Positions 3,599 to 57,658 of a DNA stretch of 64,000 nucleotides are shown piece by piece (the stretch's first letter is position 1; every line of letters starts with the position of its first letter). The DNA comes from Polyangiales bacterium (GTDB lineage: Bacteria; Myxococcota_A; Polyangia; Polyangiales; Ga0077539), in the NCBI GenBank assembly GCA_041389825.1, contig JAWKRC010000007.1:189093-253092 (forward strand). The letters are read 5' to 3'. Under the pieces are notes generated by a model. The model was given only the letters and a program-made list of their open reading frames with translations. It ran no database searches and was not told where the DNA came from. The position numbers and the translations under genes are program-made.

Positions 3599-4549
3599 GT
3601 GACCGACGCCGAGCTCCGCTGCCGAGACGAGATCAGTCCCCCCGACGACGGGCGCGAGTCGCGCGCGCTGAAGGTCGCGGCGCTCACGCTGGTGACCATG
3701 GTGGCCGAGCTGGTCGCGGGGTACGCCACGCGCTCCCTCGCGCTCACCGCCGACGGGTGGCACATGGCCACGCACGCAGGCGCCCTCGCGCTCACCGCGG
3801 GGGCCTACTGGTTCGCGCGCACCCGCTCGAAGCGCGGCGCCTTCGCCTTCGGCGGAGGGAAGGTCCACGCCCTCGCGGGCTACACCAACGCGCTGGTGCT
3901 CCTCGCGGTGGCCGTCGAGATGGCCGTCGAGGGGGCGCAGCGGCTGCGCCACCCGCAGCCCATCGCGTACACCGAGGCGCTCGTGGTCGCCGTGCTCGGG
4001 TTGCTGGTGAACCTCGTGAGCGTCGTGTGGCTCACGCCCCCGGGCGAGCACCACCACCACGACCACGACCATCACCACCACGACCCTCACCACGGTCACG
4101 ATCACCACGACCATCACCACCACGGGCGCGACCGCGACGACAACCTGCGCGCGGCGTACCTGCACGTGCTGGCCGACGCGTTCACGAGCGTGCTGGCGAT
4201 CGGGGCGCTGCTGGCGGGGCGCTTCCTGGGCTGGGCCTTCCTCGACCCGGTGAGCGCGCTGGTGGGGAGCGTGATGATCCTGCGGTGGGGCGTCGGGCTG
4301 CTCCGTAGCGCGGGGCGAACCCTCGTCGACTCAGCCCCCGACGACGGCACCCTCGGGCTGATCCGCGAGACCCTCGAGGCGAGCGGGGCGACCGTGGTCG
4401 ACCTCCACGTGTGGGACGCGTCGCCCGGTCACCGCGTGTGCATCGTCGCGGTGCGCGCGACGAGCCCCCGCACCCTCGCGGAGTACCGCGCGGCCCTTCA
4501 GGAGAAGGTCGCGCTCCGCCACGTCACCATCGAGGTCGAGCCCGCGTAG
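3599..4549 (+). CDS. Cation diffusion facilitator (CzcD/ZitB-like) metal efflux protein
   Basis: CDF TM core (HMATHAGALALTAG...), His-rich loop HHHHDHDHHHHDPHHGHDHHDHHHH, C-terminal cytoplasmic domain. Confidence 0.85.
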   Translation: MTDAELRCRDEISPPDDGRESRALKVAALTLVTMVAELVAGYATRSLALTADGWHMATHAGALALTAGAYWFARTRSKRGAFAFGGGKVHALAGYTNALVLLAVAVEMAVEGAQRLRHPQPIAYTEALVVAVLGLLVNLVSVVWLTPPGEHHHHDHDHHHHDPHHGHDHHDHHHHGRDRDDNLRAAYLHVLADAFTSVLAIGALLAGRFLGWAFLDPVSALVGSVMILRWGVGLLRSAGRTLVDSAPDDGTLGLIRETLEASGATVVDLHVWDASPGHRVCIVAVRATSPRTLAEYRAALQEKVALRHVTIEVEPA

Positions 4550-10806: not shown

Positions 10807-12587
10807 ATGCGGAGCGTGATCGTCACCTTGATCGCGGCGTACTTCCTCGCGGCGTGCAGCACCGGACGCACCCTCGACGGCGACGCGTTCGACGACGCGT
10901 CGGTGACACCCTCCGACGACCTCGGGAGCGACGAGACCTTCGACTGGGGCGACGACCCGCCACCGCCCGGCGAGGGCGAAGACGACCCCTTCCCCGAGGA
11001 GGACGCGGGGCCCAAGGAGCCTGACCCCGAGTACTGGGCCGAAGACGCCGGCGAGCCGCCCGACCCCGAACCCCCGCCCGAAGACACCGACGCGGGCGCC
11101 TTCCCGGTGACGACTCTGCGGGCACACCCTTCCCCGTCGACGCGTCGACGCCGCTCCCCGCGGACTGTCACACCACCGCGGGCCCGCTGAGCTGGTCGTG
11201 CGACGGGCCCATCGCGGGGCAGCGCTGCGTCAACGTGAGCGAGCCCTCAGACAGCCACGGCTGGAGCGACAACCACGTCTGCTCCACCGTCGACATGGGG
11301 CTGCGCTGGTCGAACAGCGGCCCCATCGCCGGGATGCGCTGCACCGCGATCACCGAGCCCGGCGACCCCGACGGGTGGGGCGACAACTTCCTCTGCCTGC
11401 CGAACGACAGCCAGTTCTCCCTCGGGTGGAGCAACGCGGGCCCCATCCCGGGTCGGCTGTGCTTCCCGTGGGTCGAGCCGCAGGAGTCGTCGGTCTGGCG
11501 CGACAACCAGCTCTGCGTCTGGTGGCGCGCCGTCGACCCCGCGCCCCAACCCTCGCTGCCGCGCTATCGGGCCGTGTTCTCGTCGCGCTCGGGCACCAAC
11601 GCCGCCGACGGCGCGGTCGAAGACGCCATCGTCGACCTCATCGACCGGGCCGTGCCCGCGTCTCGCGTGCGCGTGGCCGTGTACCGCTTCACCCGCGCGC
11701 GGCCCGCGACGGCGCTCATCCAGGCCGCGCAGCGCGGCGTCGACGTGCGGGTCGTCGTCGACGGAGACGCCGAAGACAGCCCGGGCAGCGAGGTGCCACG
11801 GCTGATCTCCGCGCTCGGTCGCTCGCGCGTCACGGTGTGCGGCGCGCCCGGAACGGCCTGCCTCGGCACCGGGATCATGCACCACAAGACCTTCCTCTTC
11901 TCCGAGCTCGACGACGGCTCGCGGAACGTGGTGCTCCAGGCGTCGCACAACCTCACGACGGGGCAGCTCACGCGGCACAACAACGCCGTGATCATCCGCG
12001 GAGACTCGAACCTCTTCGCGGCCTACGAGCGCGCCTTCGCCGACCAGCGCCGCGACACCGTGCACGCGAACTACTACCGCGTCGCGAGCGGGAACTTCCG
12101 CACGCGCGGGTACTTCTACCCGCGGGAGTCGGGCGACACGGTGGCGGGGGTGATCGACAACGTGTCGTGCGCGGGCACGGCGCGCATCCGGGTGGCGATG
12201 GCCTTCTTCACCGACGCGCGCCTTCAGGTGGCGCGGGCCCTCGCGCGGCGGGCGCAGGCCGGGTGCGACGTGCAGGTGGTGATCGGGAACGCGGGCATCC
12301 CCGCGGGGCGGCAGGCGCTCGCGGCGCTGCGCGACGGCGGCGCGCGCGTGACGCTCTACCCGGCGCGCGGAGGCAACTGGGCGCTGCACTCGAAGTACCT
12401 GCTCATCGACGCCCGCTACGCCGGGTCGAGCGCGAACCGCAGGCTGGTGTTCACCGGCTCGCACAACTGGACGGGCGGCGCGCTGCGGCGCAACGACGAG
12501 ACGATGCTGCGGGTGGAGAACGACGACGTCTTCGCGGCCTTCATGGCCGACTGGGCGCACGTCCGCGACTCCGCCGGGAGGCGGTGA
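10807..12587 (+). CDS. Phospholipase D-superfamily (2x HKD) lipoprotein with N-terminal Cys-repeat module; apparent frameshift near 11105
   Basis: Lipobox LAACSTG, acidic disordered linker. The repeat domain continues upstream of the annotated GTG in another frame (LSWSCDGPIAGQRC...). HKD motifs HHKTFLFSELDD and LHSKYLLID. Confidence 0.7.
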
Positions 12588-12667
12588 GAGACGGCCGCGG
12601 CCTGCCGCCCGCGATTCGCCTCCCGACGGGTCGACCCGGCCCCCTCGGCGCGCTACCCCGCGCCGCC

Positions 12668-13684
12668 ATGCCCAGCCCCGCCCACGAGTCCCTCGTCGCG
12701 TTGCTCTCGGAGCGCCCCGAGCTGCTCGACCAGCTCCTTCGCGCGCTCGGTCACCCTGGATTGCCCGCCGGGCTCACGGTGGTCGACGCGGCGGTGCGCG
12801 TGGTCGACCCGCTGGAGGTGCGCCCCGACCTGCTCCTGTTCGCCCGCGGAGAGCGCGGCCCCTGGGTCATCGTCGAGGTGCAGCTCACCCGTGACCCCGA
12901 GAAGATCCGGCGGTGGCTCGCCGTGGTCGGCGCGCTCATCGACGCCCGCGCCGCGATGGGCGACCTCATCATCCTGACGCACGACGCCTCGGTTTCCCGT
13001 TGGGCCGAGGAGGCCATCTCTCTGTGCAGCCCCGCAGGTACGACGCTTCAGTTGAAGCCCATCGTGGTGCGCCTCACGCGCGCCGAGGCCACGCCGCTCC
13101 TCGCGTCGGGTGAGCCGGAGCTCGCAGTGCTCGCGGCGTGGGCGGTGCACGATCAGCGGGGCGCCGACGCTCAGGCCGTGGTGCGCGCGGCGGTCGACGC
13201 GATCGGCGCGGCGCCCGACCCGAGCTTGCAGGTGGGGTTGATGCGCGCGATGGTGTCGATGCTCAACGACGCGCTCGTCGCGGTGGTCCGGGAGACGATC
13301 ATGAAGCCGCAAGTGCGAGAGAACCCCGCGTGGGAACTGATCAAGAGCGACCTCTACGCGGTCGTGAAGGCCGAGGCCGAGGCGAAGGGGCTGGCCACGG
13401 GGCTGGCCAAGGGGCTGGCCACGGGGCTGGCCAAGGGGCTGGCTGAGGGCAAGGCCGAGGGCAAGGCCGAGGGCAAGGCCGAGGGCAAGGCCGAGGGCAA
13501 GGCCGAGGGCAAGGCCGAGGGCAAGGCCGAGGCGCTCCTCACGCTGCTCACCGCTCGCGGGATCGCGGTCCACGACGAAGCCCGCACGAGCATCAGGGGC
13601 TGCACCGACGTCGCCGTCCTCGATCGGTGGATCATCCGCGCCGCCACCGCTACGTCGATCGATCAGGTGCTCGGCGCAGACTGA
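12668..13684 (+). CDS. PD-(D/E)XK-like / DUF4351-like protein (Rpn/YhgA-like family); paralog of 36990..37985
   Basis: N-terminal PDLLLFARGERGPWVIVEVQ nuclease-like core. Internal KGLA/EGKA repeats. C-terminus ALLTLLTARGIAVHDEART...LDRWIIRAATA resembles DUF4351. Confidence 0.6.
   Translation: MPSPAHESLVALLSERPELLDQLLRALGHPGLPAGLTVVDAAVRVVDPLEVRPDLLLFARGERGPWVIVEVQLTRDPEKIRRWLAVVGALIDARAAMGDLIILTHDASVSRWAEEAISLCSPAGTTLQLKPIVVRLTRAEATPLLASGEPELAVLAAWAVHDQRGADAQAVVRAAVDAIGAAPDPSLQVGLMRAMVSMLNDALVAVVRETIMKPQVRENPAWELIKSDLYAVVKAEAEAKGLATGLAKGLATGLAKGLAEGKAEGKAEGKAEGKAEGKAEGKAEGKAEALLTLLTARGIAVHDEARTSIRGCTDVAVLDRWIIRAATATSIDQVLGAD
13381..13535 (+). repeat. 12-nt periodic in-frame tandem repeat (gggctggccacg/aag x5, then ggcaaggccgag x7)
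   Basis: Read directly in sequence; encodes GLATGLAKGLATGLAKGLAEGKAEGKAEGKAEGKAEGKAEGKAE. Confidence 0.85.
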
Positions 13685-13744: not shown

Positions 13745-15646
13745 ATGCGCCCCTCGTCACGACTCCTCCGCGCGCTCTCGATCGCCGCTGTCGCGGTCGC
13801 GCTCGTCGCGCAGGTGCGCTCGCCCACCCACGCCGCGGCCGTCCTCGGCTGGCTCGCCGTGGTGCTCGCGGTGGGCCCGCGCATCAACGCCGGCACCGGC
13901 GCGCAGATCATCCTCATGGGCTTCTCGGCCCTCGCCGCGGTCTTCGTCGCGCAGGCCACCGCCCTCGGAGACGACGACGGCCGCCCCCGGCTCGTCGAGG
14001 GCTTCGCCATGGCCGCGACCGCCCTCTTCGCCGCCGCCTCGGTGCGCCGCGCCGTGAAGGCCACCTTCGGCGACGTGCGCGCCGACTTCGCCTTCGACGC
14101 CTTCGCCCTCGTCGCCTGCGCCCAGATGCGCCTGCACCCCGTCGCGCTCGCCGCCGTCGGCGCGTGGCTCCTCACCTCGCTCCTCGCGCTGCGCACCGAG
14201 GGCGGGGCCTCGCTCCCGCTGCGGCGGCTCCCGCGCCGAAACCTCGTCGCGCTCGCGATGATGGTCGTCGTCAGCGCGGGGCTCGCGGTGGGCGCCGCGC
14301 GCGGCCTGCGCGAGTTCTACGGCTGGGTCTCGGCGCGGATGATCCACGCGCTCGAAGACGACGTCTCCAGCGGCTTCGACGACCGCTTTGACCTCGGCGC
14401 GCTCTCGACGCTGCTGCAGTCCGAGGAGCTCGTCCTGCGCATCCAGGGCCCCGCGCCGGAGCACCTCCGCGGGAGCACCTTCGACCGGTATCAACGCGGT
14501 CGATGGCGGAGCTCTCGGGGATTCGCCCACCGCATCGTGCGCGTCCCCCGGGGGCCCATCGAGGGCGACGGGGTGATCTCCATCGAGCGCGTGGGAGGCG
14601 TCGGCGGGTGGTATTTCCTCCCGCTGGAGACGGGCCGCTTCGCGACGGAAGAGGGCGGCGCGCGCCTCGACCCGCTGGGCACCGTGCGCGCGATCCCCGG
14701 AGACCCCGGCCACCGCTGGTGGGTCACGCTCGGCCCGCGCGACGCGCTCGTGCCCGATCCCCCCACGGCGCGCGACACCGAGGTGCCCGAGGCCCTCGTC
14801 GACCCGCTGCTCTCGACGGCGCGCGCGTGGGCCGAGGGCGCCCGCGGCAACGACGACACCATGGCGCGGCTCACGGACAACCTCCGCGCGCGCTACCGAT
14901 ACTCCCTGCGCTTCTCGCGCGGTCGCACGGACCCGGTGCTGGATTTCCTCTACGTGCACCGCGAGGGGCACTGCGAGTACTTCGCGTCGGCGCTCGCGCT
15001 CCTCGGTCGCACGATGGGCGTTCCCACGCGGGTGGTGGGCGGCTACCGCGTGGCCGAGCGCAACCCCTACACGAACGAGTGGATGGTGCGCGAGATGAAC
15101 GCCCACGCCTGGGTCGAAGCGTGGGGCGACGACCACCGCTGGCACACCTGGGACGCGACGCCCGCCGACGGGCTCCCGCAGAACCAGCGGCACCAGACCG
15201 AGCGCTGGCGCGGGCTGCGCGAGGCGCTCACGTACTTCGCGGCGGCCGTGCAGCGCTGGGTGCTCGCGCGCACCGCGTGGCAGATGCTCGGCGCCGCGGG
15301 CGTGATGCTCGCGGTGTGGCTCGTGTACCGGAGGTTCCAGCCGCCCGAGGGGCCCGCGGTGGTGGGCCTCGACCCGCGCGACCTGCCGACGCCCGCCTGG
15401 ACGGCGCTGGAGACGGCCCTGGGCTCCCGCGGGATCACCCGCGCGAAGGGAGAGACCCTGGAGCGCTTCGCGGCGCGCGTGCGAGAGAGCGCGCTCCTCG
15501 ACGCGGAGTCCCGCGACGGCGCGGGCAGGGCCATCGAGGGCTACGCCGCGTGGCGCTACGGGAACCTCGGCGACGACGCCGCCGTGCGCGCGTCGCTCGA
15601 CGGCGCGAGGACGGCGCTGCGCGCGGCGAAGCCGACCGAGAGCTGA
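13745..15646 (+). CDS. Transglutaminase-like membrane protein (DUF3488/TGase core), usual third component of MoxR-DUF58 modules
   Basis: N-terminal multi-TM region. TGase core FLYVHREGHCEYFASALALLGRTMGVPTRVVGGY...AHAWVEAW. Late TM segment. Confidence 0.85.
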   Translation: MRPSSRLLRALSIAAVAVALVAQVRSPTHAAAVLGWLAVVLAVGPRINAGTGAQIILMGFSALAAVFVAQATALGDDDGRPRLVEGFAMAATALFAAASVRRAVKATFGDVRADFAFDAFALVACAQMRLHPVALAAVGAWLLTSLLALRTEGGASLPLRRLPRRNLVALAMMVVVSAGLAVGAARGLREFYGWVSARMIHALEDDVSSGFDDRFDLGALSTLLQSEELVLRIQGPAPEHLRGSTFDRYQRGRWRSSRGFAHRIVRVPRGPIEGDGVISIERVGGVGGWYFLPLETGRFATEEGGARLDPLGTVRAIPGDPGHRWWVTLGPRDALVPDPPTARDTEVPEALVDPLLSTARAWAEGARGNDDTMARLTDNLRARYRYSLRFSRGRTDPVLDFLYVHREGHCEYFASALALLGRTMGVPTRVVGGYRVAERNPYTNEWMVREMNAHAWVEAWGDDHRWHTWDATPADGLPQNQRHQTERWRGLREALTYFAAAVQRWVLARTAWQMLGAAGVMLAVWLVYRRFQPPEGPAVVGLDPRDLPTPAWTALETALGSRGITRAKGETLERFAARVRESALLDAESRDGAGRAIEGYAAWRYGNLGDDAAVRASLDGARTALRAAKPTES

Positions 15647-15672: not shown

Positions 15673-15716
15673 GGAGGGGGGTGCGCGGAGCCCAGGAGGG
15701 GGGTGCGCGGAGCCCA
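15673..15716. repeat. Perfect 22-nt direct tandem duplication (ggaggggggtgcgcggagccca x2)
   Basis: Seen directly, 27 nt after the transglutaminase stop, between convergent genes. Confidence 0.8.
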
Positions 15717-15823
15717 GGGCAACCCTCATGGGAGCCGGGAGGTGGACTTCATCGAGGACGGGGTCGGGCTTCCAGAAGACGGGAGCGCGGCTCCTCGAAG
15801 CAGGGAGGAGGGTTCCGCGAAGG

Positions 15824-36080: not shown

Positions 36081-36187
36081 GGCGATGAGTCCTCCGATGG
36101 GCCGCAACGATGCGCCGTCCGCGACGGGGGACCATGACCTCCGAGGTCATGGTCGGCGCGACCCGCGACGGTAGAGTCGCCGCCACG

Positions 36188-36982
36188 ATGAGCGCCCACC
36201 ACCTCACCTTCGGCCCGCTCCTTCGTGACCACCGCGTCGCGCGGAGGCTCTCTCAAGAGGCCATCGCGACGCTCGCCGAGGTCTCGACGCGCCACCTGAG
36301 CTACCTCGAGAACGGGCGCGCGGCGCCGAGCCGCGAGATGGTGCTCGTGCTCGGCAGCGCCCTCGACCTCCCGCTGCGCGACCGCAACACGCTCCTCGCC
36401 GCGGCGGGCTACGCGCCGGTGTACGCGTCGGCCCCGCTCGACAGCGACGCGCTCGCGCCGGTGAAGCGCGCCCTCGACCACCTGCTCGCGGCGCACGAGC
36501 CCTTCGGCGCCGTGGTGGTCGACCGCGACTGGAACCTCCTCCAGATGAACGACGGCGCGCGGCGCCTGCTCGCGTGGGCGCTCGACGGCCTCCACCCCTC
36601 GCCCGCGGTGATGGGCAACGTGCTCGACGCGACGCTCACGCCGGGCGCGCTGCGCGACCGGATCGTGAACTTCCCCGAGGTGGCGGCGACGGTCTTCGAC
36701 CGCTCGCAGCGAGAGCTCGCCGTGGAGCGCGACCCCGCGCGCCGCGACCGCCTCACGCGATGGATCGCGCGAACGCTGGTGGCCGCGAAGGAGGGCGGCG
36801 CCGCGTCGGGCGGCCCCTTCGTACCGCTGCACCTGCGCAGGGGGGACCGAGACGTGCGGCTCTTCACGACGCTCACATCACTGGGGACGCCCATCGACGT
36901 CACCGCGCAGGAGGTGCACATCGAGTCGTACTTCCCCGCCGACGACGCGACGGAGGCGTTCCTGCGCGCGCTCGCGGAGTGA
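36188..36982 (+). CDS. XRE-family HTH regulator with MmyB-like C-terminal domain
   Basis: LSQEAIATLAEVSTRHLSYLENGRAAPS HTH. MmyB-like region (DWNLLQMNDGARRLL). Confidence 0.75.
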   Translation: MSAHHLTFGPLLRDHRVARRLSQEAIATLAEVSTRHLSYLENGRAAPSREMVLVLGSALDLPLRDRNTLLAAAGYAPVYASAPLDSDALAPVKRALDHLLAAHEPFGAVVVDRDWNLLQMNDGARRLLAWALDGLHPSPAVMGNVLDATLTPGALRDRIVNFPEVAATVFDRSQRELAVERDPARRDRLTRWIARTLVAAKEGGAASGGPFVPLHLRRGDRDVRLFTTLTSLGTPIDVTAQEVHIESYFPADDATEAFLRALAE

Positions 36983-36989
36983 GCAGTGG

Positions 36990-37985
36990 CTACGCGGCGA
37001 AGATCGCGTCTCCGTCGCTCGCGGTCGCCGCGGCCGTGAGCCAGCGCGTGAGTCGGGCGACGTCTCCCTCGGCGACGACGGCGGCGTGCTGATCGGGCGA
37101 GAGCGCGACGCCACGCGCCTCGCAGAGCGTGAGGATCGCGGCGCTCATCGCGACCTGCGCCGCGTGGAGTTGGCCGCGAACGTCGTCGCGCTCGCGGCGC
37201 GCGTCGTCGCGCTCGCGAGCCGCCTCATCGAGTTGTGATTGCTGCTGGTCGGCCATCGCCTGGAGCCGCGCGACGATCTCCGACGCGTCGGGGACGAGCG
37301 CCTGGTTCGCGTAGAAGCGCAGGCGCGTTCCGACGGCGGCGAGCTCCAACCCGAGGACGGCGGAGCGGAGGTAGCCACCCTGCGGGACGCTGGGCTGGTA
37401 GGTGAGGGCGTCGAGCTCCGCGAGCCTCCACCCGCGGAGCTGGCCGTCGCGGCAATTGAAGCTGAAATACTCGGGGATGCGCCGCCGCGCGTAGTCCCGG
37501 ACGTTCTCGACGAGGTCCTTGTGCTTCTTGCCGAGGTTGCGCACCTCGACGACGACGTCGACGCCTCTGCCCTGCTCGGACACGACCCAGGTCTCGGGTT
37601 CGATGTCGGGGTCGCAGTCCATCACCGCGAGCACGTCGGGGACGATCGCCGGCTCGCCGGGGTAGAGCACGGCGAGCTCGCTCGCGATGAAGACCGCGCG
37701 ACCCGCGCGGCGGAAGTGCCCATCGAGCTCCGCGGCGATCCCGGTCTTGCGCCGCTGGTGGCGCACGCCCTCAGACATCGCCTCGCGGTACTCGTCGAGC
37801 GTGTCGAGGATCCGGTCGATCACCCGCTGCCGCTCGGCGGGGTCGAGCCGCGCCCAGGTCTCCTCATCGGGAAACACCAGCCGAGGGTCATCCCAGAAGC
37901 CGCCAGGGCGCGCGGGCTGAGAGGGTCGCACCGTCGCTCGCGGAGCCAGTACCACCGCGGGAGGTGAAGGTGCGGGCGATGTCAT
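36990..37985 (-). CDS. Uma2-family (DUF820) PD-(D/E)XK endonuclease-like protein with coiled-coil and DUF4351-like C-terminus
   Basis: PDVLAV...GVDVVVEVRN...KHKD...IPEYFSF. C-terminus AILTLCEARGVALSPDQ...LTRWLTAAATA parallels the 12668..13684 C-terminus. Confidence 0.75.
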   Translation of the reverse strand: MTSPAPSPPAVVLAPRATVRPSQPARPGGFWDDPRLVFPDEETWARLDPAERQRVIDRILDTLDEYREAMSEGVRHQRRKTGIAAELDGHFRRAGRAVFIASELAVLYPGEPAIVPDVLAVMDCDPDIEPETWVVSEQGRGVDVVVEVRNLGKKHKDLVENVRDYARRRIPEYFSFNCRDGQLRGWRLAELDALTYQPSVPQGGYLRSAVLGLELAAVGTRLRFYANQALVPDASEIVARLQAMADQQQSQLDEAARERDDARRERDDVRGQLHAAQVAMSAAILTLCEARGVALSPDQHAAVVAEGDVARLTRWLTAAATASDGDAIFAA

Positions 37986-37999
37986 GCGTCCCCCCCGCG

Positions 38000-39039
38000 C
38001 GGCGCTCACCCCCTCGCGAACCTCACGAAGGCTCGTCGCGCGACGCAGGCGACGGAGCATCCCAACGAGGGTCAGGCCCCACGCGGCGAGGCGACGTAGA
38101 CCGACGCGCGCGGAACGCGGCGATGAGGTACGGCGCTTCCAAACCGCTTGCAGTGACAACCTCGCGGTGCAGGCCGTGTACATCCCCAAGCGGGAAGACG
38201 GCGCCCCAGTAAAGCGGGTCGTAGCGGGCGGGGCAACTTGGGCATGCGCCAGACCCCCAGCACGAAGGAGCATCCCGGGATCCGCGGTCGCCGTCGCCCA
38301 CCAGAGCAGGGTGAGCCCCCGCACGAAGGGCAGGACCTGGCCGAGCACCGGAGACGCGGGCGCGGCGGCGACGAGCATCGTGCGGCGAGGGTGGAGATGG
38401 CCGCCGCGCCCATGTTGATCCAGTAGGGGGCGCGAGGTCTGACGGGCTGAGGTGAAGAAGGTGTAGCGGTAGAAGATCAGGCTGATGATCCAGGAGGTAG
38501 GCATTCCCCGCCGAGCCACATGGGCTGAGAGGAGGAGCGGCGGCTGCCACGGAGAAGGTGCGGCGCGAGCGCGCGAGGGTCGCGACGGACTGCGCGGCGA
38601 CTACCGCGACGAGCCATCCGCCGTTGATGCCCTCGGCGAGCGTGGGCTTGGCGTCCTTGACCGTGAGCAGCGCGAGGACTGTGTAGATCGAAGCAGCCCA
38701 CGACGCGCGATCGAGTCAGAGGGCGAGCGCGACGCACGAGTCCGCCGATCACGGGCACTGTGAGCCGAGCACGCAGGTGGCCGCGACGATCGTGAAGAAG
38801 CCGACCGATCGCGCGTGGCTCAACAGGTCGGACACGACCTCGCCGCGGTGTCGCGCGACCCTCACGATCAGGCAGGCCCAGAGGACGACATAGAAGGGGA
38901 CGTTCAGCGCGAAGAGCCCGCGAGCGAGCCCGTGGAGCCCCACGAGGTGACACGCGATCGAGACGATCCCGGTCGCCATCACCAGCGCAAAGTACGCTGG
39001 GTGCATCTTCGCCAGGCCAGAGGGCGCTCTCGCGGTCAT
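38000..39039 (-). pseudogene. TehA/TDT-family (tellurite-resistance/C4-dicarboxylate transporter-like) gene broken by 4 or more frameshifts
   Basis: Fragments MHPAYFALVMATGIVSIACHLVGL, DAKPTLAEGINGGWLVAVVAAQSVA, IISLIFYRYTFF, LPFVRGLTLLWW and DPLYWGAVFPLGMYT lie in three different frames. Confidence 0.55.
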
Positions 39040-57049: not shown

Positions 57050-57658
57050 AAAGCGTGCCTGGCGGATTCTGGCCGGGTAAAGCGCCGAAGAGAGCCTGCC
57101 GCGCGTGGAGCAGCGCTTCGCGCACGACGCACGCGGTTCGCGCGCTCAGTACGGGCGCGTGTGCGCCAGAACTGGCCGGCAAGTTCCTGCAGGGTCGCAG
57201 CTCGGCGGCGTTGTTGCGCGGGCCGCCGTTCACCACGTCGAGGCACACGCGCGGGCCGCGGAACTGCGTCGGGAGGCGGACGAAGCCGCGCGGCCCCGGC
57301 GTCATGCGCCAGAGCTGGCCCGAGCGGTCTTCGCAGGGGCGGAGCTCGACGGCGTTGTTGCGCGGGCCGCCGTTCACCACGTCGAGGCACATCCCTGCAC
57401 CGCGGAACTCCGTGGTCAGCCGCACGAAGCCGCCCGCCGCGGGCCGAACCGTCCACGCCTGACCCGTCACGCCCTCGCAGGGCCGCAGCTCGGCCGCGTT
57501 GTTCGTGGGCCCGCCGTTCACCACGTCGAGGCACATCCCCGGCCCGCGGAAGTCCGTCGAGAACCGCAGCGCCCCTCGCGCTCGCGCCGCGGCCCAGCCG
57601 CTCACCGACGCCACCGCCACGAACGCGCCGAGCGCGGCCCACTCGCTGATCGCTTCAT
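57050..57658 (-). pseudogene. Secreted ricin-B (beta-trefoil) lectin, three QxW repeats, frameshifted at both ends
   Basis: Repeat FRGPGMCLDVVNGGPxNNAAELRPC...GQxW three times. Third QxW (GQFWR) and signal peptide start (MKR / ISEWAALGAFVAVAS) are out of frame. Confidence 0.5.

Follow-up and report, generated by a model that had tools for sequence, protein, structure and literature searches.

An intact open reading frame (ORF) of 338 residues at 12668-13684 on the forward strand, here called gene 1, is unannotated and, as judged from its sequence, probably distantly related to the Rpn toxin nucleases. It lies in a stretch of 64,000 nucleotides (nt) from a Polyangiales bacterium (assembly GCA_041389825.1, contig JAWKRC010000007.1, positions 189,093 to 253,092 of the forward strand), which we call the window. 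We think it rather likely that gene 1 encodes a divergent Rpn-type nuclease with a slippage-variable tail of four-residue repeats and with an antidote that is started inside the same gene. A second intact ORF of 331 residues at 36990-37985 on the reverse strand, gene 2, carries a Uma2-type nuclease domain and ends in the same C-terminal module. Both genes had been singled out at these positions by an initial annotation of the window, and both are present and intact. The features of gene 1 are as follows (pLDDT, predicted local distance difference test).

12631..12659, forward strand: promoter-like element, TCGACC, 17 nt, TACCCC, ending 8 nt before the ATG; its function is putative.
12668..13684, forward strand: gene 1 long form, 338 residues, Rpn-like PD-(D/E)XK nuclease with a repeat-bearing tail.
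12668..13072, forward strand: PD-(D/E)XK nuclease domain, residues 1-135, with conserved H6-E7, D54 (12827-12829), E70-x-Q72 (12875-12883) and R82.
13079..13300, forward strand: all-helical middle domain, residues 138-211 (AlphaFold2 model, pLDDT >90).
13290..13294, forward strand: GGGAG, resembling a Shine-Dalgarno motif and lying 6 nt ahead of the internal ATG.
13301..13684, forward strand: predicted internal ORF M212-D338, 127 residues, a candidate RpnS-like short form with a conserved in-frame ATG.
13388..13531, forward strand: twelve 12-nt units encoding Gxxx tetrads (five of GLAT, GLAK or GLAE, then seven of GKAE), within the long first helix of the tail.
13532..13681, forward strand: conserved C-terminal three-helix module (ALLTLLTARG...C.D...LDRW..RAATA), with profile matches and a module model of pLDDT 94.

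Rpn proteins are toxic PD-(D/E)XK endonucleases (Zhong et al., PMC10400941). Their variable C-terminal domain is also made separately from an internal start, as was shown experimentally, and this short product, RpnS, binds and blocks the long form (PMC10400941). RpnS is a three-helix bundle with four-residue repeats in its long first helix; the number of repeats differs widely between strains, and a long form is inhibited only by a short form of equal repeat number (PMC10400941). In some species standalone RpnS genes carry the annotation DUF4351, and a plasmid-borne Rpn copy gives protection against phage (PMC10400941). As far as our comparison goes, the pattern found in gene 1 matches this published intragenic toxin-antitoxin system, and the intragenic antitoxin mechanism, to which the initial annotation had made no link, would explain it. 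The long form of gene 1 would be an Rpn-type DNA endonuclease whose tail consists of a Gxxx-tetrad helix and a three-helix module. By analogy with Rpn of E. coli, the repeat helix and module common to both forms would let the short form bind the long one and thereby silence a toxic nuclease, and gene 1 would be a one-gene toxin-antitoxin or defence unit, possibly acting against phage. The number of 12-nt units would change by slippage. Because both forms are read from the same DNA, they would stay length-matched, and cross-inhibition between paralogs of unequal unit number would be prevented.

In the AlphaFold2 model of gene 1 (pLDDT 88.8 overall), residues 1-135 form a mixed alpha/beta domain and residues 138-211 a helical one; residues 220-296 make up a very long helix, after which come two or three short helices. 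The N-terminal domain has the PD-(D/E)XK fold. In alignments of the family its conservation falls on H6-E7, D54, (E/D)70-x-Q72, K79, R82 and W83. Five of these residues, E7, D54, E70, Q72 and R82, are invariant or nearly so, with D allowed at position 70, and they align in register with D11, D63, E82, Q84 and R94 of RpnA, the mutants of which have abolished or altered activity (PMC5350276). A profile of 83 family N-termini aligned with nine genuine PF04754 N-termini, E. coli RpnA included, at E = 6.4e-5 and a probability of 64% (hhalign). The gene 1 protein of the window has no match to the curated Rpn models PF04754 and TIGR01784. Among 48 distant family members, two matched PF04754 (best 26.3 bits; cut-off 21) and six matched TIGR01784, all of them below the cut-off (26.9 against 52.1 bits). 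The resemblance to Rpn/YhgA nucleases that had been proposed is borne out by these distant matches and by the in-register alignment; gene 1 would be a protein that works like Rpn, and it falls outside the curated models.

The family is large. More than 2000 clusters (90% identity) match gene 1 at E <= 1e-3, nearly all of them unnamed or called 'hypothetical protein', and the relatives whose source is named come mainly from metagenome-assembled genomes (MAGs) of Polyangiales and other Myxococcota, with some from actinobacteria. The closest relative is only 54% identical. The checks of copy number, module and repeat variation were made on relatives of the window genome. A pattern scan with a deliberately narrow alignment, the alignment of all 23 family members being too diverse, gave 2-5 gene 1-type copies per Polyangiales genome, in agreement with the earlier expectation of further paralogs elsewhere; within the window the N-terminal profile found one copy only. 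A multi-copy family in variable contexts would also fit a transposase of a mobile element, as the old label 'YhgA-like putative transposase' has it. We consider this reading very improbable. We know of no PD-(D/E)XK protein that acts as an autonomous transposase. No terminal inverted repeats stand out from the GC-rich background, in which 4.5 kb hold thirty weak pairs; the only pair that brackets gene 1 is 15 nt long and has one arm inside the neighbouring gene. No integrase or transposase occurs among the 25 most frequent of 92 neighbour families, and for Rpn itself the idea has been rejected (PMC10400941, PMC10400984).

The tail of gene 1 begins with the repeat tract. In frame, it reads GLAT GLAK GLAT GLAK GLAE and then seven times GKAE, giving twelve Gxxx units (residues 241-288), and all seven GKAE units have one identical DNA sequence, GGCAAGGCCGAG. 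Tandem Repeats Finder calls two stretches of 12-nt period, 13381-13443 with 5.2 copies (90% matches) and 13441-13532 with 7.7 copies (98% matches), and the entire tract as well, with a period of 24 nt, at 13369-13536. The 12-nt coding repeat described earlier as perfect is therefore confirmed, with twelve in-frame units, seven of them identical in DNA. Almost all of about 150 relatives have a Gxxx tract at this site, with 0-12 units, glycine always at every fourth position and a predicted helical structure; the window gene, with its 12 units, is tied for the longest. Perfect arrays at the DNA level occur independently in the related loci L006 and L021 and in the window.

Close relatives differ by whole units. 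At 91% amino-acid identity, the proteins of L010 (5 units) and L013 (3 units), and likewise those of L007 (2 units) and L012 (3 units), align without any gap apart from the missing units; at 92%, L027 (5 units) and L029 (6 units) show one additional gap, of a single residue close to the C-terminus. Near-identical strains were sought in two metagenome scans, without success. The variability predicted earlier for the repeat number thus holds among relatives, where pairs of 91-92% identity differ essentially by whole units. Paralogs within one genome are mostly unequal, with 3, 4, 5 and 6 units, with 2, 3 and 5, and with 2, 4, 5, 6 and 6 in three genomes. A precedent for the weight of a single unit is the 'TAEL' repeat of HsdS in EcoR124I and EcoR124II, in which specificity is reset when a helical spacer differs by one four-residue repeat (cited in PMC10400941). 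There, however, the spacer sets the distance between two DNA-recognition domains and not a pairing between proteins.

The module that follows the repeat is shared with gene 2. In BLASTP only the last 49 residues of the two proteins align (41% identity, E = 4e-7), and a profile of 57 columns, derived from the two window genes together with their relatives, has exactly two matches in the window, at E = 4.9e-25 and 2.6e-21. The shared C-terminal module of the initial annotation is accordingly significant. Its term 'paralogs' applies to the tail, which is homologous in the two genes, and not to the nuclease domains, which by sequence belong to different PD-(D/E)XK families. Against 1.84 billion representative proteins the module profile matched 8698 clusters (50% identity) at E <= 1e-3 and 3585 at E <= 1e-10.

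The same tail is found on genuine members of known nuclease families. The protein P0358 matches PF04754 at E = 1.3e-37 and carries a GKAE repeat and the module, ending in '...GKAEGEAKGKAESILDVLDARG...C.D..L.RW'; the gene 1 family profile aligns with its tail at E = 5.7e-18 (hhalign). Genuine PF04754 and PF12784 nucleases are matched by the module profile itself, in their tails, at E of about 1e-18; PF12784 proteins among the module matches are P0377 (E = 7e-46) and three others. In all, the module occurs on at least four PD-(D/E)XK lineages, namely PF04754, PF12784, the gene 1 family and two Uma2 lineages. These matches indicate that the repeat and three-helix tail is a cassette of bona fide PF04754 and PF12784 nucleases.

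DUF4351 (PF14261) was matched by 5 of 50 scanned module-bearing proteins, and the two window tails and 27 family tails have no match to it, even at E = 10, so that the Pfam model appears to cover only part of the module family. The earlier description of the genes as DUF4351-like holds transitively, through those five proteins, and does not hold for the window tails themselves. Many module matches are standalone small ORFs of 63-135 residues, consisting of a short leader, Gxxx repeats and the module; they are abundant and resemble the standalone DUF4351 proteins encoded by separate RpnS genes (PMC10400941). We also saw 2-4 tandem repeat-plus-module units, several with a preceding methionine, among P0241, P0244, P0251, P0254, P0319, P0335 and P0339, and some loci have two module genes in tandem (L016:5001-6131; L028:4663-6469).

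The same DNA probably also yields a separately translated short form of 127 residues. An in-frame ATG (M212, position 13301) is kept in 26 of 26 scorable related loci, one further locus being N-masked there, and 21 of the 26 have GGAG 6 nt upstream of it. Where the GGAG column holds arginine, the codon is CGG or AGG in 16 of 18 cases; for Arg-Glu the count is 17 of 17. These two codons are used at 8 of 52 other Arg-Glu sites in the same genes, make up 24% of all arginine codons, and reach a share of at most 50% at each of 22 other conserved arginine columns. When near-identical loci are collapsed, about 13 independent lineages stand behind the internal-start counts. By this codon usage, the GGAG ahead of the internal ATG appears to be maintained by synonymous codon choice, and it is this conserved ATG behind a synonymously kept GGAG that predicts the RpnS-like product.

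Distant members show the same arrangement. All eight examined, an actinobacterium among them, have a methionine 19-29 residues before the repeat, and seven of the eight have a GGAG-like motif 6-9 nt upstream of it. The mean duplex energy is -7.3 at the internal start against -3.9 at the main start, and the main starts lack a Shine-Dalgarno match, only 2 of 25 lying at or below -7. Several standalone small ORFs start within two positions of the internal-methionine column, for example 'MKLDEIPESP...', an observation that is only partly informative since many of them are fragments.

The main start is preceded by a different element. Across the family, a hexamer containing TA ends 5-9 nt before the start (TA at -15 to -11) in 24 of 32 loci, against a background of 5%, and in 11 of those 24 loci TTG stands 17-18 nt further upstream, against a background of 2.3%. 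In the 45 nt upstream of the start, the layout in the window and in L002-L038 is a TTG(C/G)NN-like hexamer, 17-18 nt, and TA(C/G)NNN. A simple generic scan for sigma-70 promoters and terminators found nothing. Since the promoter-like element would place the transcription start at or beside the ATG, the long form appears to be leaderless or nearly so. With a leaderless long form that has no Shine-Dalgarno sequence and a short form that has a good one, an excess of antidote would be favoured.

Set beside Rpn of E. coli (RpnA-E, RpnP2), gene 1 shares the N-terminal PD-(D/E)XK domain with H-(D/E) ... D ... E-x-Q ... R in register, and the tail made of a long helix of four-residue repeats (glycine, charged residues and one hydrophobic residue) and a small helical module. 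Further points in common are a repeat number that differs among near relatives, multiple copies in a genome, a predicted internal start that is conserved and has a putative ribosome-binding site, and standalone copies of the tail. The differences are that the N-terminal domain of gene 1 lies outside the PF04754 and TIGR01784 thresholds, that its tail is of the 'R.G...C.D..L..W' type and that of E. coli RpnA of the 'TGLS..EE' type, that its long form is seemingly leaderless, and that it has no defence-island context. Its host is a member of the Polyangiales with about 73% G+C (guanine plus cytosine) across the whole window.

Several observations weigh against the interpretation of gene 1 as an Rpn-type nuclease with a built-in antidote. 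The N-terminal link between the family and Rpn is weak and remote (the hhalign probability of 64% given above), and gene 1 has no family match in Pfam, NCBIfam or PADLOC. Its internal methionine stands 29 residues before the first Gxxx unit, outside the published range of 8-20. A fold search with the gene 1 tail did not recover the RpnA-S crystal structure 7TH0, and no PDB entry was matched in sequence-profile searches, whether the family as a whole or the tail was the query. Standalone short ORFs from metagenome gene calls could be fragments. Housekeeping genes make up most of the 89 neighbours of 29 relatives, defence genes are not enriched there, and a search for family copies on plasmids or phages found none, so that a defence role receives no support from the neighbourhood. 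AlphaFold2 confidence falls inside the repeat, at residues 264-274. Finally, the window apparently comes from a metagenome-assembled genome, and the number of units in gene 1 could therefore be mis-assembled.

The last two points would also be expected if the repeat were a neutral low-complexity linker whose length in the window is partly an artefact of assembly. In keeping with this, a protein identical to gene 2, P0121, is labelled as coming from a MAG, the array of about 150 nt is near short-read length, and the exact gene 1 protein was not found in a collection of 5.8 billion proteins. (Gene 1 may be uncalled, or called a pseudogene, in the public record, perhaps owing to the repeat.) We nevertheless regard this explanation as improbable. 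The tract occupies the same site in nearly all of the relatives with its glycine periodicity and predicted helix, perfect arrays recur in other assemblies, a second family shows quantisation in heptads (see below), and an error of assembly could change the count of units, not create the feature.

Alternatively, only the full-length protein may be made, the repeat helix being a variable dimerisation stalk like that of FliH on a housekeeping nuclease of repair or recombination that has no antidote. The glycine repeats of FliH and YscL, AxxxG(xxxG)m xxxA, likewise form a helix with glycine at every fourth position and vary in length between species (PMC2674601), and NCBIfam FliH models match the repeat segment of gene 1. 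The match is limited to residues 227-289 with 17-36 bits against cut-offs of 180-293, and gene 1 has no FliH domain and no flagellar or secretion context. The FliH and TolA matches of gene 1, which are confined to the repeat, were rejected as compositional. A stalk would also suit the neighbours, which are mostly housekeeping and not conserved, the lack of a match to defence models, and the gene 2 family, which has the same tail without a conserved internal methionine. Against it stand the GGAG kept synonymously 6 nt before a conserved ATG in genes whose main start has no Shine-Dalgarno sequence, the large number of standalone repeat-plus-module ORFs, and the presence of the same cassette on genuine Rpn proteins, for which separate translation was shown experimentally (PMC10400941). 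We rate the stalk as unlikely, though worth keeping in mind, and prefer a nuclease with an internally started antidote.

Gene 2 carries the module behind a different nuclease domain and a different linker.

36990..37985, reverse strand: gene 2, 331 residues, Uma2-family endonuclease with a module tail.
37344..37775, reverse strand: Uma2 (PF05685) PD-(D/E)XK domain, residues 71-214 (Pfam match).
37143..37268, reverse strand: helical linker, with two heptad units ARERDD-A / RRERDD-V at 37182-37223.
36993..37142, reverse strand: C-terminal three-helix module, homologous to that of gene 1 (BLASTP, profile).

The assignment of this gene to Uma2/DUF820, already called clear in the initial annotation, is upheld by a PF05685 match at E = 7.7e-16 (58.5 bits; cut-off 27). 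P0121, a Polyangiales protein named 'MAG: Uma2 family endonuclease', is 100% identical to gene 2 and has a shorter start at GTG 37877. Because homologues conserve WDDPRL(V/I)FPDE upstream of that GTG, the long start at 37985 seems better supported. All 120 listed gene 2 homologues carry PF05685, and those inspected end in the same module, except for truncated or frameshifted ones. Uma2 (PF05685) proteins are putative restriction endonucleases; gene 2 has their clear domain and adds to it a heptad-quantised helical linker and an Rpn-type module.

The linker has a length rule of its own. Between the Uma2 core and the module lie 76, 83, 90, 97, 104 or 111 residues in 109 of 113 proteins, and 90 in the window gene. 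Successive values differ by exactly seven residues, owing to 1-6 copies of units such as AERQRxD, and a single heptad distinguishes P0124 from P0127. Gene 2 would descend from a Uma2 nuclease that acquired the module behind such a linker. A conserved internal methionine before the linker was looked for in the gene 2 family and not found, so there is no sign of a short form, and the tail is probably a domain acting in cis, for pairing or oligomerisation. A literature search found no paper that links Uma2 to this tail.

In a second Uma2 lineage (L018, L019, L024) KEGR tetrads take the place of the heptads, and the length of the cassette varies in two registers, tetrads and heptads. The genome CAYUSB01 (Myxococcota) has three paralogous loci in which a Uma2-like gene of about 300 residues lies directly downstream of an Rpn-like gene, as a two-gene cassette. 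These Uma2-like genes, L018:5870-6766, L019:~1100-2004 and L024:5881-6813, have about 3-6 units of the KEGR repeat and the module. With the genes adjoining at L018, L019 and L024, the gene 1-type and Uma2-module families meet physically elsewhere. Tentatively, and with a confidence well below even, the ruler helix and module may be a portable, addressable regulatory cassette that is not peculiar to Rpn. Cognate pairing by helix length would then link nucleases across the genome into a network, in which the short forms made at one locus would permit or silence the action of given nucleases in trans, and to which the two genes of the window could belong. Two things look new, in that neither was found described in the literature searched: the heptad-coded fusion with Uma2, and the layout of a leaderless start plus an internal start.

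Gene 1 is flanked by a PLD-domain gene at 11235-12587 and by a TgpA-like transglutaminase gene at 13745-15646. The PLD gene lies on the same strand (forward), 80 nt upstream of gene 1, matches PLDc_2 at E = 5.6e-32 and has weak DrmC-like matches in PADLOC; the N-terminus of its protein contains a threefold 'GW.DN.(L/V)C' motif. An operon linking gene 1 with the PLD or TgpA-like gene was rejected, neither neighbour being found beside any of 29 relatives. Just past the stop codon of the TgpA-like gene there is a perfect 22-nt tandem duplication at 15673-15718 (GGAGGGGGGTGCGCGGAGCCCA, 2.1 copies).

The suggestion that each copy abuts a disrupted region finds no support at gene 1, around which composition is flat and both neighbours are intact, and is weakly favoured at gene 2 by a TehA/SLAC1 fragment. 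This N-terminal fragment at 38749-39039 (reverse strand) encodes no more than the first ~84 of the 331 positions of the profile; no domain is recognisable in the ~700 nt that follow downstream (38000-38750), so that the fragment looks like the remnant of a truncated gene near gene 2. On the other side, a gene for an MmyB-like helix-turn-helix regulator (HTH_31 and MLTR_LBD) at 36110-36982 (forward strand) converges on gene 2 and ends 7 nt from the end of gene 2. Elsewhere in the window, a 144-nt tandem repeat at 57189-57568 (2.6 copies, 79% identity) has the top Tandem Repeats Finder score, 453, and a tract of about 75 nt rich in CAC/CACCAC at 4049-4124 could, depending on the frame, be a histidine-rich coding repeat.

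If the interpretation of gene 1 is true, the genes-within-genes principle of the Rpn toxin-antitoxin systems would extend to a large family that has so far been only 'hypothetical', one that occurs in GC-rich Myxococcota and Actinobacteria and escapes the present models of Pfam, NCBIfam and PADLOC. A conserved internal ATG with a synonymously held ribosome-binding site, set against a main start that has none, may serve as a purely computational signature of a hidden antidote. The same tail on heptad-quantised Uma2 nucleases suggests that length-coded pairing may be a general means of controlling many paralogous nucleases individually.

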